From assembly GCA_009783695.1 (NCBI GenBank), contig WRCY01000004.1, positions 8-64,007 on the forward strand: a DNA stretch of 64,000 nucleotides, in the 5' to 3' direction. Every line of letters starts with the position of its first letter. Positions within the stretch are counted from its first letter, which is position 1. The translations under genes and the position numbers were made by a program. Shown piece after piece: positions 6,359 through 51,558 of this stretch. This DNA is from Oscillospiraceae bacterium (GTDB taxonomy: Bacteria > Bacillota > Clostridia > Oscillospirales > Ruminococcaceae). Under the pieces are notes generated by a model. It saw only the letters and a program-made list of their open reading frames with translations, ran no database searches and was not told the DNA's origin.

Positions 6359-7279
6359 ATGGACGGCATAATTTGCATTTATAAACCTCAGAACTTTACG
6401 TCGTTCGACGTTGTTGCAATAGTACGCAAGCTTTTTAAAACCCGCAAGGTAGGGCACGGCGGAACGCTTGACCCTATGGCTGAGGGCGTGCTTCCGGTCT
6501 TTTTAGGCAGCGCCACCCGCGTTGTGGACTTTCAAATCGACAACGACAAGGAATACGTCGCGGGTTTCCGCTTCGGCGTCACCACAAATACGCAGGATAT
6601 AACCGGTGAAATTGTTTCTGTCAGTGACCGGTATATCTCCCGTAACAAGATGATTTTCATCGAGCGGAAAACAGGCGAAATCGAGCAGATTCCGCCTATG
6701 TTTTCGGCAGTGCAGGTAGACGGGAAGCGGCTTTATGAGCTTGCACGCAAAGGCGAGGAAGTCGAGCGCAAGCCCCGCAAAGCGATTATCCACAGCATAA
6801 AAGTTGAGCACTACGCCGATAATGAGGGCATTATGCGCGTAAATTGCTCGAAGGGCACATATATAAGGACGCTGATTCACGACATCGGGCAGGAGTTCGG
6901 CGCGGGCGCGGTTATGACCTCGCTCGTGCGGACGAAGTCCGGCGTGTTCACGACTGATGACTGCCATAAAATCGACGACCTGCGCGAGCTCGTGAAGCGC
7001 GAGGGAGCCGAGGCTCTGCGCGGGCTGCTGATGCCGCCGGACAAGCTGTTTGAGGCTTATCCGAAAGCGCAGCTTGACGCGGTACAGACGGATTTCTTCA
7101 AGAACGGGGTTCGCCTCGCCGCCGACAGAATCCGCTTTGAGCGGATATATAACGGCACCTACAGACTTTACGGAAGTGACAGAACAATGGTTGCGCTCGC
7201 GCAAATCGCAGAGGACCACTCGCTAAAAATAATCCAGCGGCTGGGCGCACCCGAGGTAGTGATTGAAAATGAAGAATAA
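6359..7279 (+). CDS. truB: tRNA pseudouridine(55) synthase TruB
   Basis: GHGGTLDPMAEGVLPV catalytic motif; 306 aa; canonical neighbourhood with ribF. Confidence 0.95.
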   Translation: MDGIICIYKPQNFTSFDVVAIVRKLFKTRKVGHGGTLDPMAEGVLPVFLGSATRVVDFQIDNDKEYVAGFRFGVTTNTQDITGEIVSVSDRYISRNKMIFIERKTGEIEQIPPMFSAVQVDGKRLYELARKGEEVERKPRKAIIHSIKVEHYADNEGIMRVNCSKGTYIRTLIHDIGQEFGAGAVMTSLVRTKSGVFTTDDCHKIDDLRELVKREGAEALRGLLMPPDKLFEAYPKAQLDAVQTDFFKNGVRLAADRIRFERIYNGTYRLYGSDRTMVALAQIAEDHSLKIIQRLGAPEVVIENEE

Positions 7280-8129
7280 TCAAACTTGCGCAGCGACGTG
7301 CATTGCGCTCGGCTGCTTTGACGGCGTGCATTTAGGGCATAAGGAAGTAATAAATACCGCGCTTTCCCTAAATCAATATGAGCCGGCGGTGTTTACTTTT
7401 AAAAGTCGTATGACCGATAATATCACAACCGACCGTACAAAGCACAGATTGCTGACCAATCTCGGCGTCCGGCACATTTTTTCCTATGACTTTCAAAAAA
7501 TCAGGGACTTATCACCCGGGCAGTTCGTTTCGGAAATACTGCTCAAAAATCATAACGCAGAAGCCGTCTGCTGCGGTTGGGATTTCCGGTTCGGCAGGGG
7601 GGCGCAGGGGGGCGCAGACGACCTTGCAAAAATCTGCAAAAAGCACGGCGTTATGACTATTATAATCCCGCCGCTTGAAATCGACGGCATACCCGTAAGC
7701 TCGACGCTGATACGCAGGCTTATCGCGGAGGGCGGCGTAGAGCAGGTGAATTCTCTGCTCGGTCACAAGTTTTCCTATGAGCTTCGGGTCGTCGGCGGAA
7801 ACATGCTCGGCCGTACCATCGGCTTCCCCACCATCAATCAGAATATGCCGAAAAACTGCGTTGTTCCCCGCTTTGGCGTTTATAAGAGCAGGGTCATTAT
7901 CAAAAACGAAATATACGACGGCATAACCAACATAGGCGTAAAACCCACAGCCGGAGAGAACGGGAACATAATGATTGAAACGCATATTATCGGCTACGAC
8001 GGCGACTTGTACGGCAGGATAATCAGAGTATGCCTGATGAAATTTATCCGCCCTGAAAAGAAGTTTAATGATTTCACAGAGCTCGCCGCACAAATAGAGA
8101 AAGACATCGAGGTATCATTAAATGGTTAG
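7263..8129 (+). CDS. ribF: Bifunctional riboflavin kinase / FAD synthetase
   Basis: GCFDGVHLGH N-terminal motif and the riboflavin-kinase C-terminal half (GFPTIN...HI). Start is either TTG at 7263 or ATG at 7269. Confidence 0.92.
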   Translation: MKMKNNQTCAATCIALGCFDGVHLGHKEVINTALSLNQYEPAVFTFKSRMTDNITTDRTKHRLLTNLGVRHIFSYDFQKIRDLSPGQFVSEILLKNHNAEAVCCGWDFRFGRGAQGGADDLAKICKKHGVMTIIIPPLEIDGIPVSSTLIRRLIAEGGVEQVNSLLGHKFSYELRVVGGNMLGRTIGFPTINQNMPKNCVVPRFGVYKSRVIIKNEIYDGITNIGVKPTAGENGNIMIETHIIGYDGDLYGRIIRVCLMKFIRPEKKFNDFTELAAQIEKDIEVSLNG

Positions 8130-9474
8130 AACACGCTTCGCTCCAAGCCCCACAGGCTTCATGCACCTCGGCGTGCTGCGTACCGCGCTGTACGCGTGGC
8201 TTTACGCGAGAAAGAATAAAGGTACGTTCATACTGCGAATCGAGGACACTGACCGGGCGCGCTACGTTGAGGGCGCGGTCGATGTGATTTACAGCACGCT
8301 TAAAACCTGCGGGCTTCACTGGGACGAGGGCCCGGAACGGGGAACGCCCTGCGGCGAGTATTCCGAAACCGGTAATTACGGTCCGTACTTTCAAAGTGAG
8401 CGCAAGGACTCATACATGAAATACTCAGAGCTGCTCATCGAAAAAGGCGCGGCATACCGCAAGGACGGCGCGGTCTGGCAGAAGATACCCACTGCGGGAA
8501 GCACAAGCTTCCGCGACGAGGTTTACGGCGAAATAACAGTCGAAAACAGCGAAATAGAAGACCAGGTACTGATTAAGTCCGACGGCATGCCCACTTATAA
8601 TTTCGCAAACGTCATCGACGACCATCTGATGGAAATCACGCATATAATCCGCGGCAGCGAGTTTTTGTCGTCCACACCTAAGTATATTCTTCTCTACGAG
8701 GCGCTCGGCTGGAAGCCGCCCGTTTTTATTCACGTCGCGCCAATTATGCGGGACGCGGGCAATAAGCTCTCCAAGCGCGACGGCGACGCCTACTTCAGCG
8801 ATTTTATCGACAAAGGTTACTTAGTCGAAGCCGTGATTAACTACATCGCGCTGCTCGGCTGGTCGCCGGGCGGAGAGAACGAGTTTTTCACGCTCAGCGA
8901 GCTTGTCGGGGCGTTTGATTTGAGCGGCGTTTCAAAGTCGCCGGCGATTTTCGACGAAGTGAAAATGCGTGCAATAAATGCGCATTATATCCGCAGCCTC
9001 ACGCCCGAGAAGTTCAAGGAAACCGCGAAGCCGTATGTAAAACCTTATATCTGTAAGGACGGGCAGTGTGCAGTTGCAAACTGCGACGCTCTTTTTGCCG
9101 CACTACAGCCGCGAACAGAAGTGCTGACCGACATAACGCCTCAGATTGACTTTATCTCCGCAGCCTGCGACCATGAAATTGAATTATATAACAACAAGAA
9201 AATGAAAACCACGCTCGAAACCGCGCTCGTTGCGCTCGGCGAGGCGCTCCGTGCTCTTGAGGAGCATGAGCTTGACCGTGACGAAATCTTCACCGCTTTC
9301 AAGGCGCTCGCAGACGACGCCGGGGTCAAGGTCGGATACTTCCTGTATCCGCTGCAAATCGCGCTGACCGGCAAGCAGTCGGCGCCGGGCGGCGGGCTCG
9401 ATATATGCATTATGCTCGGCAAGGACGAATCAATAAAGAGAATTAAAACAGCCATAGAAAGGCTTAAAACTTAA
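8122..9474 (+). CDS. gltX: Glutamate--tRNA ligase
   Basis: RFAPSPTGFMHLG (HIGH region) and KLSKRDG (KMSKS region). The start overlaps the ribF stop. Confidence 0.94.
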   Translation: MVRTRFAPSPTGFMHLGVLRTALYAWLYARKNKGTFILRIEDTDRARYVEGAVDVIYSTLKTCGLHWDEGPERGTPCGEYSETGNYGPYFQSERKDSYMKYSELLIEKGAAYRKDGAVWQKIPTAGSTSFRDEVYGEITVENSEIEDQVLIKSDGMPTYNFANVIDDHLMEITHIIRGSEFLSSTPKYILLYEALGWKPPVFIHVAPIMRDAGNKLSKRDGDAYFSDFIDKGYLVEAVINYIALLGWSPGGENEFFTLSELVGAFDLSGVSKSPAIFDEVKMRAINAHYIRSLTPEKFKETAKPYVKPYICKDGQCAVANCDALFAALQPRTEVLTDITPQIDFISAACDHEIELYNNKKMKTTLETALVALGEALRALEEHELDRDEIFTAFKALADDAGVKVGYFLYPLQIALTGKQSAPGGGLDICIMLGKDESIKRIKTAIERLKT

Positions 9475-40673: not shown

Positions 40674-41777
40674 ATGGCGACAATAGCTTACAACACAAGA
40701 CCGCGCCCCGCCGGAATCTACATCAACGGCAAAAAGCGCAGCGGCTTCACGCGCTTTATTATGCGCCTTTTCCCGTGGAAAGGCGACAGCGTGTTTGAAA
40801 TAGTGCGCAAGACCATCTTTCTCATTGCGCTCATCGCGCTGATTTACTTCGGAGGCGGAGAACTCTTCATTTTCGGGAACGACCTTTATCAACAGTACAA
40901 AATCGACCAGAAGCTGTCCGGCTTCTGGAATCCCAATATTTCCGAAGAAATGCGCGAGCAGGCCAACCAGGGCAGGCAGCTTCCGATGCTCGACGAGTAT
41001 ATCGAGCACTGGAGCTTTAACAATGACCTTATAGGGCATATATTAATTCCCGATATGACCTCCACCCTGCCTTACACCGACCACAACCGCCATATAATGA
41101 ATTACCTTGTGTACCAGACCACCGACAATGAATATTACCTCAATCATAATTTTGACGGCTCAAGAAGCGCGGGCGGCTCTATTTTCGCAGACCGCCGCCA
41201 TAACTTCGCAGACGACGGTATTCTCCCGGGAAACACCGTGCTTTACGGGCATAATATCTACACGGGAAATATGTTCGCCAAAGTCGCGGATTATTATAAA
41301 GCCTACTACTACGGAAACGGCACATCTTATTATCAAAGGCATCCGATTGTGCATTTTAATACGCTTTATGAGAGGCACGACTGGAAAATTTTCGCCGTTG
41401 TTTTATTTAATACTGATGAAAGATACGGCGAAGTATATAACTATCATACAGTTCATGAATTTAGGGATGCAGACCATTTTCACACTTATATTTTAGACAT
41501 CATGGACAGGAGCGTGCTTTTCACTGATGTTAACTTACAGTACGGCGACCATATCCTGACGCTTTCCACCTGCTTCTGGCCTCAGACCGAGGCGGAACGC
41601 GCGGTTGTTTTCGCCCGCAGGGTACGCGACGGGGAAAGTTTATTCGTTGATGTTGAAAAAGCGGAAATAAACAAAAAGTTCCTGCCTTATGAATTGCAGG
41701 CAAGAGCCTACGGAAGCAACTGGACCGGAAGGGTCTGGGATTATGAAACGTATCTTTTAAGTTACGAAGAAGAGTAG
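40674..41777 (+). CDS. srtB: Class B sortase-like transpeptidase, paralog 1 (long N-terminal extension)
   Basis: N-terminal FPWKGD motif plus a TM segment. Catalytic motifs VLYGHNI, LTLSTC and VVFARRVR. Confidence 0.82.
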   Translation: MATIAYNTRPRPAGIYINGKKRSGFTRFIMRLFPWKGDSVFEIVRKTIFLIALIALIYFGGGELFIFGNDLYQQYKIDQKLSGFWNPNISEEMREQANQGRQLPMLDEYIEHWSFNNDLIGHILIPDMTSTLPYTDHNRHIMNYLVYQTTDNEYYLNHNFDGSRSAGGSIFADRRHNFADDGILPGNTVLYGHNIYTGNMFAKVADYYKAYYYGNGTSYYQRHPIVHFNTLYERHDWKIFAVVLFNTDERYGEVYNYHTVHEFRDADHFHTYILDIMDRSVLFTDVNLQYGDHILTLSTCFWPQTEAERAVVFARRVRDGESLFVDVEKAEINKKFLPYELQARAYGSNWTGRVWDYETYLLSYEEE

Positions 41778-41823
41778 TTGCTTATATTAGTATTATGAAG
41801 TAAAAATGAAAGGATAAGTTCTT

Positions 41824-43137
41824 ATGGCTGATATACTTCAAGAGATATTAGACGAAGTAGAAAGCAGAAAAGCAGGAACAGATAAACCTAAACCTAAGGT
41901 GGAGCCTTATTTAGTGGAGGTATTGCCTGTCTTCCCCGACGACTCGGACGATGTAATTCCGCACGGCGGCATAAGGAAGTTCTTAAAATCACTCCTGCCC
42001 GGCAAAGCAGACCCCCCGCTCGAAATCATGCGGAAAGTCATCTTCGCGGTTTCTCTTGCAGTGGCGGCAATCTGCCTTGTGCTGATTCTCGGCAATAGCC
42101 TTGAGGGGCGAAAACACAGCGCTACATATGATGAGCTAAGGAATGGGATGGAGCAGTCCGCCATGCTGTTCGAGCTGTCGGGAAGCGTCTATCTGCCTGC
42201 CGAAGCCGTCGCGGTCATGCTCACCCGCGACCCCGAGGCGCTGCGCGCATACGCGCATGAGCTCGCCGAAATCATCGAGCTCTCCCCTGAACGGATTCTT
42301 GAAATACTTATCGAAAAGCCCGGAATCCTCCCGCAGTTCATCACTACATACGACAGGAATCCCGACCTCATCGGCTGGGTGAAAATCGACGGGACAAAAA
42401 TCGACTACCCCGTGTTGCAAAACCTTGAGGACAACCATTATTATCTTGATTATTCAATCGACCACGTGCGGACGATGCACGGCTCCGTTTATGCAGACTG
42501 GCGCAATGCTTTTACCCCCGTTTCGCGCCCCGACAACACCATACTGTACGCGCACAACATGAACGACGGCTCGATGTTCCATCCCGTAGTGCGCTATTAC
42601 TCCTATTATTACGCCAACCCCGGGCACCTGCGGCACTATCACGCCCACCCTTTCATCGAATTCAGCACACTTTACGAGCACAATACCTACAAGGTTTTCG
42701 CCGCAATTTTCGTACATACCGAGGAAAATAAATACGACGATGTCTACGACTATTTCAGGAAGCGTGAGTTCGCCAGCCGCGCAGAGTTCTACGACTTCAT
42801 GCAGAACGTTATGGACAGAAGTTCGTTTTTCACCGACGTGGACGTTATGTACGGCGATGAAATACTGACGCTCTCCACCTGTCACTATCCGCTCGGCGAA
42901 AACATAGACGCGCGCGTCGCGGTGTTTGCGCGGCGGCTGCGCGAGGGAGAAAGCCCCGATGACTTTGATACCCTCGCCGCATGGGTTAACCCGAGCCCGC
43001 TTTATTTCAAGCTGTGGTATCAAAGGTTCGGCGGCTCGTGGGGCGGCAGGAACTGGGATACGGGCAAGGTTGCCGGCTTGGACGAGTATTTGCTTGAGTT
43101 TCCCGACGCGGACACGAGATTGCACTATCTGCATTAA
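41824..43137 (+). CDS. srtB: Class B sortase-like transpeptidase, paralog 2
   Basis: LLPGKAD motif plus a TM segment. ILYAHNM, LTLSTC, VAVFARRLR. Confidence 0.82.
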   Translation: MADILQEILDEVESRKAGTDKPKPKVEPYLVEVLPVFPDDSDDVIPHGGIRKFLKSLLPGKADPPLEIMRKVIFAVSLAVAAICLVLILGNSLEGRKHSATYDELRNGMEQSAMLFELSGSVYLPAEAVAVMLTRDPEALRAYAHELAEIIELSPERILEILIEKPGILPQFITTYDRNPDLIGWVKIDGTKIDYPVLQNLEDNHYYLDYSIDHVRTMHGSVYADWRNAFTPVSRPDNTILYAHNMNDGSMFHPVVRYYSYYYANPGHLRHYHAHPFIEFSTLYEHNTYKVFAAIFVHTEENKYDDVYDYFRKREFASRAEFYDFMQNVMDRSSFFTDVDVMYGDEILTLSTCHYPLGENIDARVAVFARRLREGESPDDFDTLAAWVNPSPLYFKLWYQRFGGSWGGRNWDTGKVAGLDEYLLEFPDADTRLHYLH

Positions 43138-43227
43138 ATTTCCTGTACCAATGTTTACTTAATTAATCAGCGCTACTGTAAAACGTAGATAAAATATTTA
43201 AAATTACTAAACGAGGTTGTACTTAAA

Positions 43228-44388
43228 ATGCCGGAGTTTGACAGAAGACCGAGAAGAAATTCCCGCAACAGAAAATTTCAAAGCGGCGGACAGCGGGTTG
43301 CAGTAAAACGCAAGGAAAACTTTGCCGTTTCTATTCTCAGCGGGCTCTTCCCGTGGAAAGGTGACAAAGTCGGCGATGTCGTAAGGAAAATAATCCTGCT
43401 CGCATCACTGGTTCTGCTCATCTGGGCAGGCATGCAAATCGTGGATTTCTATATCCTGCGCGACCTGCGCACGGACCGGGAACGGCAGGGGCTCGTCGAT
43501 ATCCGCAACAGCTATGCGGGCGAGGAGTTCTTTGAGATGAACATCTCGCAGCTGGGCGCCGCCTCCGACCTCACCACCGACGCAATTCGCGTAATAGGCG
43601 AATACTGGGAGTTCTACGAGATGAACAACGACTTCGTGGGCTGGCTCGAAATTTACCCGATTGTGCAGTATCCCGTCTATCAGGCGGACGATAACGAGTT
43701 TTATCTCAACCACAATCACGAAAAGTGGCCCACTACCAACGGTACTATTTTTGCCGACTGGGAGGGGCGGTTCACACCTTACGGGCGCCCGCACAACACG
43801 ATTATCTACGGGCACAACCTGCAGACCAAGAACCTCTTTCAACCGCTGCTCAACTACCGCCCGAACAACACGTCAAGCATGGACTCGTTCGAGTTTTTGA
43901 AGCTGAACCCGACGATTGTTTTCGACACGCTCTATGAGCGCGGAAACTATAAAATCTTCGGTGTTATTCAGACCAACGTAAGGCGGACGCAGGGCGATGT
44001 CTTCGATTACTGGAACTACGTATACTTCCGGAACAAGGCACACTTTGACAGCTTCGCGGCAGGTGTTCTCGACCGCAGCATGTATTATACAAACGTCGAC
44101 CTTGAATACGGCGATGAAATACTTATGCTCTCCACCTGCGACTTCTCGATGTTCGCCAACGGCGCGGACTCAAGCATCCGCCTTGTGGTGGTGGCACGGC
44201 GCGTCCGCGACAACGAGTTCGCCGGCTTTACGCCGGAGGAAATCGACGCCTTTATCGACAACCGCGGCGTCAACGAGCACGGGCAGCTCAACCGCAAGAT
44301 GTTCGAGTCGTATTACGATTTGCGGCACCCTGCCGGCTGGGCGGGGCGCAACTGGGATTTAAATTATATAAAAGATTTTGAGGGATAG
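43228..44388 (+). CDS. srtB: Class B sortase-like transpeptidase, paralog 3
   Basis: FPWKGD motif plus a TM segment. IIYGHNL, LMLSTC, LVVVARRVR. Confidence 0.82.
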   Translation: MPEFDRRPRRNSRNRKFQSGGQRVAVKRKENFAVSILSGLFPWKGDKVGDVVRKIILLASLVLLIWAGMQIVDFYILRDLRTDRERQGLVDIRNSYAGEEFFEMNISQLGAASDLTTDAIRVIGEYWEFYEMNNDFVGWLEIYPIVQYPVYQADDNEFYLNHNHEKWPTTNGTIFADWEGRFTPYGRPHNTIIYGHNLQTKNLFQPLLNYRPNNTSSMDSFEFLKLNPTIVFDTLYERGNYKIFGVIQTNVRRTQGDVFDYWNYVYFRNKAHFDSFAAGVLDRSMYYTNVDLEYGDEILMLSTCDFSMFANGADSSIRLVVVARRVRDNEFAGFTPEEIDAFIDNRGVNEHGQLNRKMFESYYDLRHPAGWAGRNWDLNYIKDFEG

Positions 44389-44392
44389 TATT

Positions 44393-44465
44393 ATTTGAAT
44401 AAAACCCTGTTCACGGGAAAATGTTATTTTCAAGAAATATTATGAGAAAAGGATTTACGGAAAAC
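44393..44465 (+). repeat. Leader cassette copy LC14
   Basis: TATTTGAATAAAACCC..TTCACGGGAAAATGTTATTTTCAAG...GAGAAAAGGATTTACGGAAAACATG. Confidence 0.75.
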
Positions 44466-45797
44466 ATGACCAATTCATCACTGCTGCGCTGTGCGGCGGC
44501 ATTTCTTGTGCTGTCGGCTTATATATGGCTTTTCGGCATCACCGGCGTGATTGAGGGTGACGCTCCGGTAGCTTATGCCGATGAGGGTCTGGAAACCCCG
44601 CGCTCCGAGCCGGAGGATTCTGATGAGGACGAGGGGTTTCTCTCGGGCACAAACCTTAATATTAACCCCGTCAACGACCCGAAGCCGACCTTCGCTGACC
44701 TGCCGGGCAATGACTCGCCCGCGCTTCAGGAGGATTACACTGCTTACGCAGATACAATACCGTTTGTTCCCGACAGCGCAGAAGCCGAACCCGCACCAAT
44801 TCCCGTTACTACGACTACAATACCGCCGCCCGCAGCAACAACTCCCGAGCCTTCTCCGCCCGCAGGCGATACTGACAGCGGCGTCACACCGCCCGAGGTT
44901 ATTTCCGCGCCCGAAGTCACCGCAGCCCTGCCGCCCGAAGGCGGAATTGACATCGGCGTTACACCGGCAGAAACCGTTGTGAACCCCGCTCTTGCGGGGC
45001 GGCTCACGGTTCAAACTTCAAACGGGCAGGTAACGGATACGGCGCTTAATATAGTTTCGAGAATAGTGCAGCATGAAATCGGCAGTTCCTTTCATGATGA
45101 GGCAATAAAGGCACAGGCCGTTGCCGCCTACACCTATATAATGCATTATCAGAGCCAGGGCGGCGTAGCGAACGCGGAGCTCGCCTCTGCAGCCTCCGAC
45201 AAAATTACCGGGATTGTCAGAGAGGTTTTGGGGCAGGCTATTTATCATGAGGGCAGCTACATTGCGTCCGTTTATTACGCATCAAGCGCGGGATACACGT
45301 CGAGCTCCGCGAACGTATGGGGCGGGGACATACCGTATCTCAGAAGCGTGCAGACTGCCTTTGACAAAGAGCACGACCCGAATTACGGGCTTGTTGCAGC
45401 TTTCACTCCGACCGACATAAGAGTCGCTGTGCTTGAACGCACAGGCATCAATCTCACCGGCGACCCCGCCGCATGGCTGCGGATTATAAATCACGTCGAT
45501 ACCGTGTATGTCGGCGACATGACTGTCGGTGGGCACACGTCTTTCACAAGGCCGGACGGACGGGAAATCCCGTTCACAGGCAGGCATTTCCGTGATGTAA
45601 TGGGCACGCAGAAGCTGCGCTCCGCCGCCTTTGAGTTTACATACGATTCGGATACCGACAGATTCACGTTCACGACCTACGGCTACGGACACGGCGTGGG
45701 GCTCAGCCAGAACGGCGCGAATATTTTAGCGCGGCATTACGGGTATGATTATAAGCAAATCCTGGCGTTTTATTACCCCGGAACGACCATACAATGA
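44466..45797 (+). CDS. SpoIID/LytB-domain protein
   Basis: Signal anchor, a Pro/Thr-rich linker, then AQAVAAYTY..., YYASSAGYTSS..., GHGVGLSQNGAN. Confidence 0.88.
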   Translation: MTNSSLLRCAAAFLVLSAYIWLFGITGVIEGDAPVAYADEGLETPRSEPEDSDEDEGFLSGTNLNINPVNDPKPTFADLPGNDSPALQEDYTAYADTIPFVPDSAEAEPAPIPVTTTTIPPPAATTPEPSPPAGDTDSGVTPPEVISAPEVTAALPPEGGIDIGVTPAETVVNPALAGRLTVQTSNGQVTDTALNIVSRIVQHEIGSSFHDEAIKAQAVAAYTYIMHYQSQGGVANAELASAASDKITGIVREVLGQAIYHEGSYIASVYYASSAGYTSSSANVWGGDIPYLRSVQTAFDKEHDPNYGLVAAFTPTDIRVAVLERTGINLTGDPAAWLRIINHVDTVYVGDMTVGGHTSFTRPDGREIPFTGRHFRDVMGTQKLRSAAFEFTYDSDTDRFTFTTYGYGHGVGLSQNGANILARHYGYDYKQILAFYYPGTTIQ

Positions 45798-46285: not shown

Positions 46286-46289
46286 ATAT

Positions 46290-46372
46290 GCGGATATGGC
46301 GGAATGGCAGACGCGCATGGTTCAGGTCCATGTCTAAGCAATTAGGTGGAGGTTCAAGTCCTCTTATCCGCA
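46290..46372 (+). tRNA. tRNA-Leu (anticodon CAG)
   Basis: Hand-folded cloverleaf: acceptor GCGGATA/TATCCGC, anticodon stem CATGG/CCATG with loop TTCAGGT, a long variable arm, and T-arm GGAGG-TTCAAGT-CCTCT. No CCA is encoded. Confidence 0.9.
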
Positions 46373-46409
46373 GGAATGAGAATCAAAGACATAAACACAT
46401 ATGAAATTT

Positions 46410-46440
46410 GGAGTCCGAAATTCGGACTCCTTTTGATTTT
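46410..46440 (+). terminator. Intrinsic terminator after tRNA-Leu
   Basis: ggagtccgaaattcggactcc followed by ttttgatttt. Confidence 0.88.
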
Positions 46441-46581
46441 ATCTGCATTTGTCAAAATTAACGCGAGAATCGAAAATACTAAATTTGGAAGCGTAAAACG
46501 CTCGTAATAAATACGACTAAAGTGCCTTACTTAAACCTTTAGCTAATTTATATATATTTTAATAAATTATTAATTCCCCTC

Positions 46582-46610
46582 TTGACATTATAACGCAAAT
46601 CCGTTATAAT
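46582..46610 (+). promoter_or_regulatory. Consensus sigma-A-type promoter
   Basis: TTGACA (46582-46587), 17-nt spacer, TATAAT (46605-46610). Confidence 0.75.
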
Positions 46611-46629
46611 TAATATAGAGGTGATTACG

Positions 46630-47198
46630 ATGGATTTAAACTTAGTTTTAAAAGAAAAAAATATTTCAAAATATAAACTCTCAAAAATAAGCGGTATACC
46701 TTTTACCACTGTCAGCGAAATTACAACGGGCAAGTCAAAAATTAAAAATTGCACAGGTGAAACGCTTTATAAATTAGCGAAAGCGTTAAATGTGACGATG
46801 GAAGATTTACTTTCGGAATGCATGGAGAACCGTCCGGAATTTGAGTGGTTTAAAAGCGAAGCATGCCATAGGGTCAAGCGCGAGGGTGATTTAGATTTTA
46901 TTATTAATGTATTAGAATCATGCGAAATTCGGAAATTGTATGAAAAAAATGGTATCCCGAAAGCCTTTATCTGCTTGCAATGGTGGATTATCTAAGCAGA
47001 GAGAACGATTTACTAATTTGTTCGGATTATGCAGACATTCGCAGATTGCGTATGAAAAACATCATTTACCCTGCTGGAATATTAATATTATGTAGTGTAC
47101 ATGGGGATGAAAGTTATAAAGAAAGAAGCCTAAAAAAAGCCATTCCTGAATTTCTGCGCCATAATATCGTAGAAGCGGAGATAAGAAATGTTTGCTAA
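46630..47198 (+). pseudogene. XRE-HTH protein with a C-terminal domain, split by a -1 frameshift at an A7 tract (46943-46949)
   Basis: ORFs 46621-46995 and 46980-47198 join smoothly if one A is added (...LYEKKWYPESLYLLAMVDYLSREN...). HTH motif KYKLSKISGIPFTTVSEI. Confidence 0.7.
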
Positions 47199-47897
47199 TT
47201 TTGAATTTACGAAGGAAACGCTTGATATTTGCTTAAAAGAACTCGATAAAGAGTTCCGCAGGCGCAACGGCATAAAAACACACGCTGACATTATACTGAT
47301 TGGCGGTGCTTCTGTTCTTATAAATTATGGTTTTCGGGATAAAACTACCGATGCTGACGCAATAATCAGAGCTTCATCTGTGATGAAAGAGGCGATTTTC
47401 TGCGTCGCCGATAATTTTAACCTACCGAACGATTGGTTTAATCAAGATTTTAAAAAGACAGATTCTTACTCCGAAAAACTATTCAAGATTGCTTCCCGCT
47501 ACAGAACATTCTCAAATGTTTTACATGTATGGACTGTCGCCGCCGAATATTTAATTGCTATGAAGTTATTAAGCGGCAAGCTATATAAATATGATTTGTC
47601 TGATATTATCGGGATTTTGTGGGAACATGAAAAAAAGACGCGTCGATAAGCAGAGATATGATTATGAAAGCCGTTAAAATGCTTTATAATCAACCCCTTT
47701 CTAAAGAATCTGCAACATTTATTGACAAGGTTTTAAATTCGGAAGATTATGAAAAGTTTTATTTTGATTCACGGGAGAGTGAGCGCGAGGGTAAAGAAAT
47801 TTTAGATTCCTTTAGAGAGAACAATCCCGACTCAAAAGGAGTTAAAGCTAACGAGATTATAGAGCGGGCAAGACGAAAAAAGGATTCCGATGGATAA
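47188..47897 (+). pseudogene. Nucleotidyltransferase-fold protein (DUF6036/AbiEii-like; tentative), split by a -1 frameshift at an A7 tract (47630-47636)
   Basis: LIGGASVLINYGF-x6-DADAI resembles the G[GS]-x(9-13)-DxD minimal NTase motif. ORFs 47188-47649 and 47658-47897 join as ...WEHEKKDASISRDMIMKAV... The start overlaps the upstream stop codon (ATGTTTGCTAA). Confidence 0.6.
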
Positions 47898-47967
47898 TAG
47901 TCTATAAATTTCTGTAATTTAGAGATTGTTTTTTGATAGTATTTATGATGTAATGGTGAAAATTGAG

Positions 47968-49410
47968 TTATGTCATTTCAACATATGTTGCGGTTGGAAT
48001 CACAATATATCTGCTGTTAGCTGGGAAATCATTGAGGCGGTATGTTTCAATGATGTATTGATTCTTGCCGTCAAAGCGAATCGTAACCGACTTCGAGTAA
48101 TCCACATCGCTCTGCTCTTGCTCGTTAATAATTAGACTTGCTCTCGTTTCTTGCATAATCGCAAACGTAGTTTCAAAGCCAATTCCACCGCCACCCGACT
48201 TAGCGTGAGTGGTCACTCGCTCCGCTCCGAGTCGTACCAACGTATCAACCTCAAACGGAATACCGCTATCCAATACGGTGAACTCGTAATGTTCCCCCGA
48301 CACACCGATAACAACCGTAATACTGCGGAAAGTGTTATCACTGACATTAACCGCCTTTTTCGCGTCATTGAGGTGATTCACAATCAGAGTTTCTAACGCT
48401 CCCTGCTTAATAATATTATCGACCATATACTTGATACTGCCGCTCGTCATGACGTTAAACGCAATCTTCTCAGCGGCGAACTGCCGTGCATAATACTCAA
48501 ACAAATTGTCGATTGCTACTATGTTTGTGGACGGCAGAGTGGCTTTCCCCTTGATTTTATCTAACTCCCCCTCCCAATCAGATTGCAATTCTTGAAGAGC
48601 CTCTGCCAATGGAGTCCCCACAACTACACCTTCCATAACTTTCAATCTGTCAGTGATATTATGGATTGCAGACGACTTTTCACGGTAAAGCCTGTTTAAC
48701 TCCTCATTCCTCGCCCTTTCCTCAAGATACAGCTTTTCATAATGATTTGTCGTATTTTGTCGAACTTTCTTTACTTGGAACATTGTAATCAATCTCCTTA
48801 TAAGTATATAAATACCGACTCCAGCAATAAGAACACCTGAGATATATAAGAGCCCGTCGAAATACTTTTCAGATTGAACACTTATATTAACCCACGTGAC
48901 AAGAATTAAGATAACACCTGTGAAAAATAAAGCTGCAACAATTGTGAATTTATTAAATATAAATGAAAACCCTTTCTTAAAACGTCTGATACGGAATAAA
49001 AGGAAAGACAAAACAAACTGCATTATAGTTACAAATATATATAATAAAAAGTAGATGTGTTGGTTAACATTGAGGGCGGCATCTGTAATGTTCTCGCTAC
49101 TGAATAAAAACACAGATACTAAACTAATAAAAGTAATTGCTATGTAATGTAAAACATAACTGATACTAAATGATAACAGATATGCAGAAACTACTACTTC
49201 AAGTTTTTGTTTTGTTAAGAAAAAAACGAAGATAGTGGTCGTTATACATAAAAGTGCTCTATATAGTGAAAGCGGCATTAAAAAAGGTTTAATAAATAAT
49301 ACTGTCCATAACAAACACCATACTGCGATTAAGACTTTATGGCTTATGGCTGCATTATATTGAATAGACTTTGTAAAAATATAAAAAGAAGAAATTGTTA
49401 TGCTCATCAT
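47968..49410 (-). CDS. Membrane sensor histidine kinase, AgrC/HPK10-like GHKL type
   Basis: About six or seven N-terminal TM segments. H-box SSAIHNITD, N-box LIVNHLNDAKKA, G-box SGGGGIGF. A strong SD (AAGGGGGAG) sits about 33 nt upstream of the ATG, so an in-frame ATT start at 49440 is possible. Confidence 0.85.
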   Translation of the reverse strand: MMSITISSFYIFTKSIQYNAAISHKVLIAVWCLLWTVLFIKPFLMPLSLYRALLCITTTIFVFFLTKQKLEVVVSAYLLSFSISYVLHYIAITFISLVSVFLFSSENITDAALNVNQHIYFLLYIFVTIMQFVLSFLLFRIRRFKKGFSFIFNKFTIVAALFFTGVILILVTWVNISVQSEKYFDGLLYISGVLIAGVGIYILIRRLITMFQVKKVRQNTTNHYEKLYLEERARNEELNRLYREKSSAIHNITDRLKVMEGVVVGTPLAEALQELQSDWEGELDKIKGKATLPSTNIVAIDNLFEYYARQFAAEKIAFNVMTSGSIKYMVDNIIKQGALETLIVNHLNDAKKAVNVSDNTFRSITVVIGVSGEHYEFTVLDSGIPFEVDTLVRLGAERVTTHAKSGGGGIGFETTFAIMQETRASLIINEQEQSDVDYSKSVTIRFDGKNQYIIETYRLNDFPANSRYIVIPTATYVEMT

Positions 49411-49517
49411 AACGATGGCATTAATCCATAACGAATAAATGAGAGCTCCCCCTTTTTCTTAGTAATGATTTATTAACATTCGAATAAATCATATATATTT
49501 GAATTTTAGAATATAAC

Positions 49518-50324
49518 TTAAAACATATCACGACGGATTTTATCAGTGTAATAATGGATAAACTCGGTGGGAGTCGGTGTGCCTTTATCCTTTCTGACGG
49601 GAGCGGTATAGCGTTTCAGCAGTTCGTCTATGTCGTTTGCGTTCTTCCATGCATCATTAATCGCCGTCTGTATGGCGCGGATTACATTGTCATAGTTGTT
49701 TTTCTGGGATTTGGAAACGTCTTGTAAAACCGTTTCGGAATCCTTATCTCCCTTGCTTATAAGCAGATATATTGATTCCTCTATGTATTTCCGTCCTTTC
49801 AACCTTATGGAAATGCCGAACGCATCTAATTCGGCTTTGATTCTGCTTATAATGCGGGTTTTGAGTTCTTCGGGTGTTTCAATTGTTGTGATTGCAGCGT
49901 TTCTACTACCTTGCAGATGATAGAATTCACGGAATCTGAGCAAGTGTCTAATCACCATTTCGGGGCAGTAACTCTGTTGTAACTTGTAAAAAATCCAGTT
50001 GAGGTCATACTTTGCGTGAAGGTGGGTGTGCACGGTGTCGTTGCGGTTGCGGGTGGTTATGACGACAATAGGGCGAATACTGAACTCGGTTTTATAGAAA
50101 TCCTCTAAGAAATCGTAACCCGAACCTGCACCTGTGTTCAACTCCAAGTCTAAAATGACCGCCTCCGGCAGTTTGTTCCTGACAAGTTCAAGCCCCTTGT
50201 CGCTCTTATTTGTCATTCCGACGAAGACAATGTCAGTTCTCGTGCTTGCGTAATCGGCGAAATCCCTGCAAGCCGCAACATCGTCCTCAATCAGAACTAT
50301 TTTCATTGGTTTTTGCTTATCCAT
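49518..50324 (-). CDS. Response regulator with a Spo0A C-terminal-type DNA-binding domain
   Basis: Receiver domain (LIEDD, ILDLEL acceptor Asp, VVITT). The C-terminus IRLKGRKYIEESIYLL...NVIRAIQTAINDAWKN...TPTPTEFIHYYTDKI parallels Spo0A (...RVERAIRHAIEVAWSRG...KPTNSEFIAMVADKL). Start at 50324 is preceded by the SD gaaaagga. Confidence 0.85.
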   Translation of the reverse strand: MDKQKPMKIVLIEDDVAACRDFADYASTRTDIVFVGMTNKSDKGLELVRNKLPEAVILDLELNTGAGSGYDFLEDFYKTEFSIRPIVVITTRNRNDTVHTHLHAKYDLNWIFYKLQQSYCPEMVIRHLLRFREFYHLQGSRNAAITTIETPEELKTRIISRIKAELDAFGISIRLKGRKYIEESIYLLISKGDKDSETVLQDVSKSQKNNYDNVIRAIQTAINDAWKNANDIDELLKRYTAPVRKDKGTPTPTEFIHYYTDKIRRDMF

Positions 50325-50538
50325 TGTTAAAATCCTTTTCAACTTCATTGAACTTCATCGCGGAACGTATGTAAATACAATGCTTATTGTGGTATCATGC
50401 TTAATAGATAGGGTATTTCATTACGTTAGTTGATAAAAAAATGTAATGAAAAATAAATAATTAAGATTAAGATGTTTAAGGCATTGCTGAATTCATTGAT
50501 TTGCCCGTCAATGAAAACAATTGTTCCCTTTGCTTGGT

Positions 50539-50637
50539 TCAGTTATTTTTGTCGTTATGGTTGAGTAAGTAATCAATCAGTTTCATTAATAGCATAGCAA
50601 AAGCTATACTTAGCATTATAGCTTCATAAAATGACAT
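50539..50637 (-). CDS. 32-aa hydrophobic peptide (Hol-Tox-like small membrane peptide; not in the ORF track)
   Basis: Hand translation: MSFYEAIMLSIAFAMLLMKLIDYLLNHNDKNN. Strong SD aagggggacggcaaaATG. First gene of the peptide-RR-HK transcription unit. Confidence 0.6.
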   Translation of the reverse strand: MSFYEAIMLSIAFAMLLMKLIDYLLNHNDKNN

Positions 50638-50717
50638 TTTGCCGTCCCCCTTTCTTTAGAGATGTGTGGGGGAGGTCAATTGTTTTTATTCAGCAATGCC
50701 GTAAACACCTTGCTATA

Positions 50718-50746
50718 ATTATCGCATAAAAAATATTTTTTGTCAA
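50718..50746 (-). promoter_or_regulatory. Near-consensus extended -10 promoter for the peptide-RR-HK unit
   Basis: Minus strand: TTGACA (50746-50741), 17-nt spacer, TGcGATAAT (-10 hexamer at 50723-50718). The -35 box sits in the palindrome gtcaatactttttt/aaaaaagtattgac. Confidence 0.6.
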
Positions 50747-50775
50747 TACTTTTTCCAAAAAAGTATTGACTTTTT

Positions 50776-50962
50776 AATTAATAATCTGTGTATCCCATAA
50801 TAACAATCAATTTGCTTTTAAAATGCAGTATTTATGGGCTTTAAAGAATTTCACGGTGTCATTTATGTAATATATGATTTAAATTCACGTATTTATAACC
50901 TAATAAACCTTGATATAATCAATGTTTGATTGTAATGTTGTTATGGGATACGCAGAATTAAT
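50776..50962. repeat. TIR-bounded 187-bp element (MITE or inverton-like)
   Basis: Left arm ATTAATAATCTGTGTATCCCATAATAACAATCAA (50776-50810). Right arm at 50926-50962, reverse complement ATTAATTCTGCGTATCCCATAACAACATTACAATCAA. The shared core is TCTGYGTATCCCATAAYAACA. Confidence 0.65.
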
Positions 50963-51049
50963 AAAATTAAAACGAGTTAAATTCATCATTATACCTTATT
51001 TTTGGTATAACGCTTCTACAGAGAAGGATTATTTTTACGTTAATTCGTT

Positions 51050-51202
51050 TTATTTTATCAAGACTTTTCTTACCGTAGTATAATAGCAACCATATACTCT
51101 GGCAATCGCCGCCATACTCATACCGCTCTGATACTTTTTCACAACATGATCTTTCTCGGCATCAGTAAAATATCTCTGCTTCTGGGTAATTTTACGAACC
51201 AT
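51050..51202 (-). CDS. Small HTH protein (50 aa)
   Basis: MVRKITQKQRYFTDAEKDHVVKKYQSGMSMAAIARVYGCYYTTVRKVLIK. SD ggagagga lies 8 nt upstream. The longer ORF to 51454 runs through a plus-strand promoter and is doubtful. Confidence 0.55.
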   Translation of the reverse strand: MVRKITQKQRYFTDAEKDHVVKKYQSGMSMAAIARVYGCYYTTVRKVLIK

Positions 51203-51440
51203 TTTAGTATCCTCTCCATAAGGACTCTCTTCTTTTTCCTTGACAAATTCCCCTTTTCCACTTATACTATCATTAAGAATAGCATTGCGGTAAGTTAAAG
51301 CGGTCTTGATTGAATTGTTTAAGTACGGTGCTGATATCCGCAGGCGGCATACCGCCGCACCAATCCCGTCATCCCAAGGGCTGACGGGACTTTTATATTG
51401 CCCGTCTGACACGTTTCTAAGCCACAAGATTAATTTTTTC

Positions 51441-51469
51441 TTGACAAACGGCACATAAACGAATATAAT
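51441..51469 (+). promoter_or_regulatory. Consensus sigma-A-type promoter
   Basis: TTGACA (51441-51446), 17-nt spacer, TATAAT (51464-51469). The leader contains a 13-bp perfect hairpin aattgaaaactat-aaa-atagttttcaatt (51502-51530). Confidence 0.75.
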
Positions 51470-51558
51470 TATATACAGCAGTATATTTTACAGCCCCTTA
51501 AAATTGAAAACTATAAAATAGTTTTCAATTTAAACGATTTTATCATGAGGAGAGTTAG

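Follow-up and report, generated by a model that had tools for sequence, protein, structure and literature searches.

The stretch analysed here, called the window throughout, comprises 64,000 nucleotides of contig WRCY01000004.1 from an Oscillospiraceae bacterium. Behind a near-consensus promoter on its minus strand lie three open reading frames (ORFs), at 50637-50539, 50324-49518 and 49410-47968, which encode a 32-residue hydrophobic peptide, a response regulator (RR) with a Spo0A-type output domain and a polytopic histidine kinase (HK). An original prediction, made from the letters alone, read the three as one operon with the peptide as a possible pheromone. The coordinates hold, as does the promoter, with 11/12 matches and a TG extension. 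The operon does not: the peptide gene is self-contained, belongs to another family and is not co-conserved with the RR-HK pair. The locus probably consists of two independent modules, one of toxin type and one a two-component system, on an islet of ~5 kb; the family behind the two-component system would use peptide signalling, and the copy in the window would be receiver-only.

50460-50746, minus strand: module A, a type I toxin-type unit
50718..50746, minus strand: extended -10 promoter of sigma-70 type, TTGACA-17-GATAAT with TG extension, 11/12 matches
50688..50711, minus strand: 5' arm of a 24-nt long-range helix (inverted repeat I2, 92% complementary), starting at the predicted transcription start
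50539..50637, minus strand: 32-residue hydrophobic peptide, rli28/BsrH-type type I toxin family (Rfam rli28)
50469..50492, minus strand: 3' arm of the 24-nt helix, downstream of the peptide stop codon
50742..50770, plus strand: 13-bp hairpin with T-run over the -35 box, a putative antisense-RNA terminator
47968-50357, minus strand: module B, the two-component cassette
50338..50357, minus strand: two tandem 10-bp boxes, TGAAGTTCAA TGAAGTTGAA, candidate operator directly 5' of the regulator ribosome-binding site
49518..50324, minus strand: response regulator, receiver plus Spo0A_C, 268 residues, member of a paralogue family
49411..49517, minus strand: RR-HK spacer, 107 nt, compared with L003, L004, L087, L088, L089 and L093
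47968..49440, minus strand: histidine kinase, about seven membrane helices plus DHp-CA, predicted phospho-acceptor His250; first ATG at 49410, 480-residue ORF

The 32-residue peptide unit

The first ORF probably belongs to a known kind of small toxin locus. The Rfam model rli28 matches the unit over the full model length, slightly below its gathering score (41.3 bits versus 45, E = 7.8e-4), in an alignment that runs from the -10 box past the ribosome-binding site to codon 24. The -10 region of the promoter at 50746-50718 aligns with positions 1-20 of the model, which hold the conserved -10 box, and this strong promoter is part of the toxin-type unit. Promoter-like sites are not enriched regionally (21 found versus 21.3 expected). 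The likeness to the rli28/BsrH-RatA loci (RF01492, RF01776) covers the 32-residue peptide, the -10 box, the ribosome-binding site and the ORF start, all of which align, whereas a long clamp between the 5' and 3' ends is a feature of the window copy.

Homologues of the peptide occur in unannotated spacers of two plasmids, from Lactococcus piscium (L092; MSVFQAISLMIAFAMLVLKLNDKNKK, full length) and Enterococcus faecium (L091; MSIFEAIQLMIAFATLVLLIID...), and are 47-55% identical to it over the full length. Their loci score 72.1 bits with rli28 and carry a convergent RatA at 53.6 and 60.7 bits, all above the gathering score; no two-component system of the present type accompanies them. On Listeria plasmids, a BsrH-like toxin ORF has been described beside RatA, overlapped by rli28 (PMC9484302). 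The window peptide consists of a hydrophobic helix and a polar, charged tail, and Pfam Hol_Tox reaches it below threshold (13.7 bits versus a cut-off of 23.3). A hidden Markov model (HMM) of the three toxin-type peptides found zero copies across the other ~88 regulator loci, and therefore the 32-residue peptide is not co-conserved with the two-component system. In annotation terms the gene becomes a type I toxin-type small ORF outside the signalling system, its toxicity being predicted by homology.

The transcript of this unit appears to be built for silence. RNA from ~50711 to ~50460 folds at -76.5 kcal/mol (z = -6.98), and in the predicted fold the ribosome-binding site of the peptide is paired with CCUCCCCC. 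The strong promoter would thus give an mRNA of ~250 nt whose 5' end pairs with its 3' end, and translation of the membrane peptide would normally be blocked because the ends pair and the ribosome-binding site is sequestered. On the opposite strand, an extended -10-like sequence, TGgTATCAT, lies at 50391-50399 in the former intergenic region between the XRE and regulator genes. Speculatively, this sequence and the hairpin at 50742-50770 could delimit an antisense RNA of ~370 nt over the whole toxin mRNA.

The regulator, the kinase and their family

The second ORF encodes a receiver domain followed by Spo0A_C, and its start at 50324 matches both the NCBI gene call (P0001) and the position of the ribosome-binding site. 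Pfam Spo0A_C (PF08769) scores 53.7 bits against a cut-off of 25 and covers profile positions 2-104 of 104, whereas Response_reg, at 28.1 bits, is slightly below its cut-off of 30.2. Across 32 aligned homologues there is no variation in the acidic pair, the phospho-acceptor Asp59 or Lys114, and hardly any at Thr91; because this pocket is kept, the receiver looks phosphorylation-competent. A profile of the family matches the structures of the Spo0A DNA-binding domain end to end (1LQ1, E = 3e-14; 1FC3, E = 1e-13), reproducing an alignment to the B. subtilis protein that had been made by eye. A fold search with the full-length regulator was dominated by the receiver domain and returned nothing specific on Spo0A_C, and the 1LQ1 sequence match was used instead.

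The regulator is nonetheless, on sequence criteria, not the orthologous Spo0A but a probable Spo0A_C paralogue, as the original prediction supposed. It scores 74 bits with the NCBIfam equivalog TIGR02875, whose cut-off is 200, and annotated canonical spo0A products are just 21-24% identical to it. The 64-kb window contains no second Spo0A_C copy. Differences reach into the recognition helix, where B. subtilis has SRVERAIRHAIEVAW and the family has sNVIRAIQTAINDAW. The central Arg is retained; throughout the family, the column of Glu in SRVERAIRH has become Ile or Val and the second Arg column a nearly invariant Gln. The base-contacting residues of the helix are taken here as those reportedly identified in the 1LQ1 structure paper. 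Canonical Spo0A proteins, from Bacillus to C. difficile, share their DNA-contacting residues, which read G2, C4 and G5 of TGTCGAA (PMC3485338).

The kinase had been likened to AgrC and the HPK10 class, and half of that comparison survives. An AlphaFold 2 (AF2) model (pLDDT 80.7) shows a polytopic architecture fused to DHp-CA, with about seven membrane helices leading into a long DHp helix and then the CA domain (helices 2-15, 22-40, 47-66, 70-103, 118-138, 154-179 and 183-263). The likeness to AgrC is one of architecture only, because neither sequence profiles nor Foldseek place the kinase with HPK10: Pfam HATPase_c_5 gives no match at E <= 1, HATPase_c matches only at a sub-threshold E = 5e-4, NCBIfam gives no match, and Foldseek lists generic DHp-CA kinases first (ZraS, WalK, HK853, CpxA) with AgrC at rank 36. 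His250, in the H-box A-x-H-x4-R-L, the DxG motif at 381-383 and the GxGxG motif at 407-411 are invariant in 37 homologues; the Asn position of the N-box is mostly Asp across the homologues. Phosphotransfer to the regulator is predicted.

The kinase reading frame probably begins upstream of its first ATG, at an ATT at 49440, because the in-frame residues encoded 5' of that ATG (IYSLWINAIV, 10 codons) match the N-termini of homologues and a strong ribosome-binding site, GGGGGAG, stands 5 nt before the ATT. Where relatives carry TTG or GTG as the kinase start, the window has CTC. Such an ATT start may be normal, because L003, a complete copy of the module, likewise lacks a canonical kinase start, its ATT directly following an in-frame TAG (~11164). 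It is also possible that the non-canonical start means low kinase translation.

Both proteins belong to large families. A word-index search gave 110 regulator clusters, all of ~267 residues and all with REC and Spo0A_C, and a profile search of 1.84 billion cluster representatives gave 758 kinase relatives at E <= 1e-30, nearly all 470-510 residues long. Scanning one genome per species yielded 80 loci, and counts are given over 81. A kinase homologue lies directly 3' of the regulator gene on the same strand in 66/81 loci, which bears out the proposal that the regulator has its own membrane kinase. The carriers are Oscillospiraceae, Lachnospiraceae, Christensenellales, Defluviitaleaceae and other Clostridia from gut, rumen and termite sources. 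A divergent XRE-type helix-turn-helix (HTH) gene upstream of the regulator is frequent and not universal (~30/81 loci). Other neighbours vary: one syntenic lineage has housekeeping genes around the module, and at the other extreme the termite-gut clade has toxin-antitoxin, transposase and replication genes. Several lineages keep the module as a stable gene set on the chromosome, amid housekeeping genes. Judged by gene order, the complete family module is a divergent XRE gene followed by regulator, mini-peptide and kinase in one direction (XRE< RR> mini-peptide> HK>).

Variants and further searches complete this picture. In L004 (6936-12541) two cassettes stand in tandem, with regulators 33% identical to each other, and in a cultured Oscillospiraceae isolate, WX1 (L015, 6001-12776), one regulator gene is followed by 3-4 paralogous kinase genes. 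The spacer between regulator and mini-peptide also takes insertions: a PDDEXK_2 (Rpn-type) transposase gene in L045-L047 (~6800-8300) and a MazE/PIN toxin-antitoxin pair in L088 (6869-7532). A search of metagenome collections for further close relatives added 2 loci only, and IMG/VR viral contigs held no cassette relatives. Carriage by phages or plasmids was considered and set aside, since the phage and plasmid collections gave one weak hit on a phage contig (23% identity) and, on two very large replicons, canonical spo0A only. PHROG 37855, of unknown function, matches the regulator over its full length (E = 1e-14), and PADLOC gave no defence match except a weak one to the receiver domain.

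Mini-peptide, sensor half and candidate operators

In relatives, the gap between regulator and kinase genes is typically 200-300 nt long and holds an ORF of 11-20 codons with a strong ribosome-binding site. Such mini-ORFs occur in at least 46 loci, and among the 46 collected are MSFWEWIRYWLG, MDWWDELMDWIGKWWR and MLDWFDAFWKWVSYWV, and in the window's own clade MWNWFFNLFGAF, MWGWFFRMFGI, MWDWIRRILGMG and MWSWFIRMFGLN; at ~10 loci the mini-ORF lies on the opposite strand inside the same gap. The peptides are leaderless, short, amphipathic and rich in Trp and other aromatic residues, with no conserved Cys. The position is specific: with a mini-peptide HMM, each of the 25 matches at E <= 0.05 lay immediately 3' of a regulator gene, and the rest of ~1 Mb of six-frame translation gave none. 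In the window's clade a hairpin with a U-run precedes the mini-ORF, and a terminator and a separate kinase promoter follow it. A leader-peptide or attenuator role for the kinase gene is ruled out because the mini-ORF has its own terminator, the kinase its own promoter, and some mini-ORFs are on the opposite strand.

Comparable hairpins recur before mini-ORFs in other clades. A hairpin ending in GGTA(T/A)TTTTTT precedes the mini-ORF ribosome-binding site in the gaps of L003, L007, L012, L045 and others, and in the termite clade two complementary 9-nt stretches flank it, AACATCATT ... AATGATGTT, of which the latter directly adjoins the ribosome-binding site. The hairpin could be an attenuator or riboregulator of the mini-ORF itself. 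No Rfam family matched the gap hairpins of 11 loci at the gathering threshold.

That the 32-residue peptide is a diverged member of this Trp-rich family finds little support in the profiles. It begins MSFYEAIML..., and one mini-peptide subgroup (L012, L020, L023, L075) begins MSFWEWIMY... or MSFWEIIRY..., so that a start of the form MSF[YW]E.I is common to both. This start is all they share: mini-peptides score <= 7.5 bits with the toxin HMM, and toxin-type peptides ~1 bit with the mini-peptide HMM. A common origin is conceivable.

The mini-peptide and the membrane half of the kinase diverge together, as seen most clearly in eight related loci with the same chromosomal neighbours (one syntenic group). 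Mean pairwise identities in this group are as follows.

Regulator: 85%
XRE: 84%
Kinase C-terminal half: 79%
Kinase membrane half: 45%
Mini-peptide: 49%

Divergence of the peptide follows that of the membrane half (Mantel rho = 0.80, p = 0.0003) and is uncorrelated with that of the kinase core (-0.25), the regulator (-0.25) or XRE (-0.18). Single pairs display the same contrast at sharp borders. When L058 and L074 are compared as DNA, the XRE and regulator genes are 79-95% identical, the 3' part of the kinase gene 95-99% and the flanks 90-99%. Only a block with precise limits, made up of the peptide gene and the 5' half of the kinase gene, drops to 53-69%, which is the layout of the hypervariable region of agr (PMC3673130). 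In L044 and L081 the regulators are 85% identical and the sensors 28%, in L046 and L047 the regulators 97% and the peptides 31%, and the termite clade follows the same trend of co-divergence. This pattern suggests that the mini-peptide is a ligand of the kinase membrane domain and that its alleles are specificity groups, which we infer from sequence divergence.

Boxes resembling the Spo0A target, the 0A box TGTCGAA, accompany the module. Within 160 nt upstream of the mini-ORFs, its complement TTCGACA was counted 9 times where 0.86 would be expected, in one orientation only and at -104 to -130. In the termite clade, 2-3 TTCRACA boxes with a spacing of ~10-11 bp lie upstream of the peptide gene, and 1-2 TGTCGAA-type boxes within or just after the kinase promoter (L003, L087, L088, L093). 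Close relatives also carry 2-5 copies of a tandem TGAAGTTSAA repeat in their aligned upstream regions; the pair at 50338..50357 is unique in the 64 kb, and on the opposite strand it reads TTCAACT/TTGAACT, which is 0A-box-like (TTSAACTTCA). The box patterns fit autoregulation by a Spo0A-like domain, with the boxes as candidate binding sites. Perfect 0A boxes number 5 in the window, against 8.4 expected, and none is in the cassette promoters.

The window carries this module in reduced form. Its RR-HK spacer is only 107 nt long and, unlike those of relatives, has no hairpin, Trp-rich mini-ORF or terminator; it retains a degenerate kinase promoter, with ATTCGAA in place of TGTCGAA and TGtTAATAAAT. 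Neither the mini-ORF leader nor the peptide HMM finds a match anywhere in the window (HMM E <= 5). The divergent cassette-type XRE gene is absent upstream of the regulator, and the toxin-type unit occupies that position. The most similar regulator on a full-length contig, that of L093 (84% identity), stands in the full set of XRE<, RR>, MWSWFIRMFGLN> and HK>. Identity between the window and the termite-gut clade is 63-84% for the regulator and 51-69% for the kinase. Both window genes are intact and under purifying selection, the ratio of nonsynonymous to synonymous substitution rates (dN/dS) being ~0.1 against four relatives. The losses of XRE and peptide are not necessarily recent, because dS is ~1 against the nearest relatives. 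The window copy most likely acts as a receiver-only cassette.

Islet, mechanism and alternatives

The cassette and the toxin-type unit lie in a tract of low GC content. Over roughly 46400-51600 GC is ~25-45%, as against ~50% on either side, and the tract begins immediately 3' of a tRNA gene. These are the marks of an acquired-looking islet, in keeping with the horizontal acquisition that had been proposed. Features of the islet and its edges, other than the two modules, are listed here.

46289..46373, plus strand: tRNA-Leu(CAG) (ARAGORN; Rfam tRNA, 53.4 bits)
46365..46374: left copy of TATCCGCAGG, a 10-nt exact direct repeat (repeat family D9) at the tRNA 3' end, candidate attachment (att) core
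46621..47897, plus strand: islet cargo, HTH_26/XRE, DUF6036 nucleotidyltransferase and a 79-residue ORF (Pfam)
51050..51202, minus strand: small HTH protein, CENP-B_N / transposase-HTH-like (Pfam, residues 93-132 only)
51335..51344: right copy of TATCCGCAGG, where the GC content changes; candidate border of the islet on that side

The two copies of TATCCGCAGG provisionally bracket an islet of ~5 kb, its borders being provisional because they depend on one short repeat pair. The right copy falls within the N-terminal part of a mechanically called 134-residue ORF at the right islet edge, of which the small HTH protein is the C-terminal part. No integrase gene lies inside the islet. The three cargo genes at 46621..47897 share one direction, convergent with the kinase gene, and look like a module of toxin-antitoxin type; BLAST does not connect their HTH_26/XRE protein with the XRE cluster that accompanies the cassettes. 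A 21-nt inverted repeat (90% complementary; arms 50785-50805 and 50936-50956, 130 nt apart) sits between the toxin promoter and the small HTH gene and is possibly the remnant of a small mobile element. The RR-HK arrangement of the window recurs in an independent assembly, L002.

Beyond the islet, three sortase-like genes and a SpoIID-domain gene lie upstream of the tRNA at 40674-45797 on the plus strand (Pfam, gene table of the source contig), and the host therefore has at least some sporulation-type genes. On the other side, at 51559-51936 (plus strand), a stand-alone receiver protein (Response_reg, 79 bits) is encoded beside an FtsX/ABC transporter pair; no link between it and the cassette was seen.

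In the mechanism proposed for the family, the mini-peptide would bind the membrane domain of the kinase as a ligand, the kinase would phosphorylate Asp59 of the regulator, and the regulator would bind 0A-like boxes (TTCGACA/TGTCGAA and variants) at three places: ahead of the peptide gene, within the kinase promoter and 5' of the regulator gene itself. Such binding would close an autoinduction loop of the agr/com type. The window copy, having presumably lost the segment with XRE and peptide, would respond to a peptide made at another genomic locus or by neighbouring cells. Its cassette is probably transcribed as an RR-HK unit, possibly with a contribution from the toxin promoter.

Parts of this scheme are familiar from other systems. 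The cassette shares with agr, ComCDE and ComQXPA a peptide gene beside a polytopic kinase without a large extracellular domain, and with agr a hypervariable block that takes in the peptide gene and the sensor-coding 5' half of the kinase gene, between conserved flanks; an autoregulatory layout is plausible. It differs in having no AgrB-, ComQ- or ABC-type gene for maturation or export, and in a mini-peptide that is its own transcription unit, on either strand, leaderless and 11-20 residues long. The kinase differs from AgrC/HPK10 in its H-box and in lacking the HATPase_c_5 signature. Moreover, the output is Spo0A_C and not LytTR or NarL, and the window copy is without a peptide gene.

With Spo0A itself, the regulator shares the receiver and Spo0A_C architecture, the phospho-acceptor pocket and, in relatives, 0A-like boxes in the cassette promoters. 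Canonical Spo0A receives its phosphate through a phosphorelay or from orphan kinases, and Spo0A_C has been regarded as exclusive to Spo0A and used as a marker of the sporulation master regulator (PMC6136694). The cassette regulator, by contrast, adjoins a dedicated membrane kinase (the window included among the 66 loci) and may occur in tandem, as in L004. C. thermocellum has a close second Spo0A, 49% identical to that of B. subtilis (PMC4890492), and gut phages carry truncated Spo0A_C genes without receiver and without kinase (PMC10294663). The phage homologues resemble the cassette in placing Spo0A_C outside canonical spo0A, on accessory DNA, and differ from it in that the cassette regulator has an intact receiver and a cognate kinase. 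No paper was found that describes a Spo0A_C regulator accompanied by both its own kinase and a peptide gene, in agreement with the impression that the architecture was undescribed.

Several observations weigh against the reading of two modules with a receiver-only cassette. On the toxin side, the rli28 score is just short of the gathering score, no RatA antitoxin RNA matches at E <= 10 in 50350-50850 (Rfam), and a canonical terminator is missing between the toxin ORF and the regulator gene, so read-through from the toxin promoter into the regulator gene is possible. On the signalling side, peptide and sensor correlate weakly over all 36 loci (rho ~0.19), and the main signal of co-variation comes from the one group of eight; a value of this size is expected at saturation, so that only recent pairs are informative. 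The excess of TTCGACA stems from ~three independent clades, other clades having different upstream words. No exporter or maturation gene is conserved beside the cassette in the relatives' loci, and secretion of the mini-peptide is putative. In the window copy, the cassette promoters have no TGNCGAA box, the -10 box of the regulator is CACAAT where relatives have TACAAT and looks weakened by eye, and with dS at ~1 the copy could be heading to decay.

Some of these points would favour the single operon of the original prediction, with the 32-residue peptide as a pheromone or precursor sensed by the kinase. The three genes are adjacent on the same strand behind one strong promoter, with the missing terminator and the weaker regulator -10 box just mentioned, and the peptide N-terminus, MSFYEAIM, resembles mini-peptides of the MSFWEWIM type. 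Yet the homologues of peptide and leader are rli28/RatA loci of plasmids from Lactococcus and Enterococcus, where no such two-component system is present, the peptide is missing from all other regulator loci examined, HMM cross-scores are weak, the mRNA architecture would block its own translation, and the real peptide gene of the family lies between regulator and kinase. This makes a single operon highly improbable. The survey of co-occurrence suggested with that prediction accordingly finds the RR-HK pair recurring without this peptide. The idea of a peptide-sensing system with Spo0A-type output survives for the family, whose hypervariable mini-peptide co-varies with the sensor, and fails for the peptide that was named and for the window copy. 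The accompanying remark that no processing gene is present also stands, AgrB/AgrD-type and double-glycine/ABC genes being absent from the window and not conserved in the relatives' loci. The regulator might instead be a mobile mimic of Spo0A that binds host 0A boxes and so rewires or hijacks sporulation and stationary-phase decisions. Its Spo0A_C aligns end to end with the domain of the 1LQ1 DNA complex, 0A-type boxes are enriched in the promoters of relatives, a SpoIID-like gene lies nearby in the host, and truncated Spo0A_C genes do occur in phages (PMC10294663). Nevertheless, two recognition-helix positions differ throughout the family, the window promoters contain no 0A box, viral contigs hold no relatives and phage and plasmid collections nearly none, and the set is stably chromosomal in several lineages, all of which leaves a mobile mimic very unlikely.

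Decay and private regulation have to be set against the receiver-only reading as well. That the window cassette is a decaying remnant without current function would suit the loss of the XRE and peptide genes, the degenerate box in the kinase promoter, the want of a TGNCGAA box, the replacement of the canonical kinase start by CTC and the missing integrase. It is quite unlikely, however, given that both ORFs are full length with all catalytic residues intact and dN/dS at ~0.1, that L003 is complete yet has no canonical kinase start, and that independent assemblies show the identical arrangement. A different possibility concerns the family: the mini-peptide could be a membrane modulator acting in cis on its own kinase, as MgrB does on PhoQ, which would leave the window copy deregulated. 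No leader, processing enzyme or dedicated exporter is found near the cassette, the peptides are short, aromatic and amphipathic, and co-variation with the membrane half of the kinase is equally expected of such a modulator. Mosaic hypervariability limited to the peptide gene and the sensor half, however, is what socially selected agr pherotypes show (PMC3673130); a private intracellular pair has little cause to diversify in this way, and 11-17 residues cannot span the membrane. A cis-acting modulator is unlikely, if not negligibly so.

The preferred reading, of a toxin-type unit beside a receiver-only cassette, makes the stripped copy in the window of less interest than the family behind it. 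Tentatively, and with hardly less than an even claim on belief, that family may represent an undescribed and widespread peptide quorum-sensing system in Clostridia of gut, rumen and termite, with a Trp-rich peptide, a seven-helix kinase and a Spo0A-type output, on which the window copy would eavesdrop. In the boldest version, the output of the window cassette could overlap the Spo0A regulon of its host. As a paralogue family with its own kinase (110 regulator and 758 kinase clusters), the cassettes can confound gene-content surveys of 'spo0A' in gut Clostridia. A copy without peptide on a mobile-looking islet would be a natural signal-blind or eavesdropping receiver. If the mini-peptide is the ligand, dominant spore-forming anaerobes of the gut would signal by peptides in a way that forms a class of its own, new in combining pherotypes like those of agr with the absence of all known maturation machinery.

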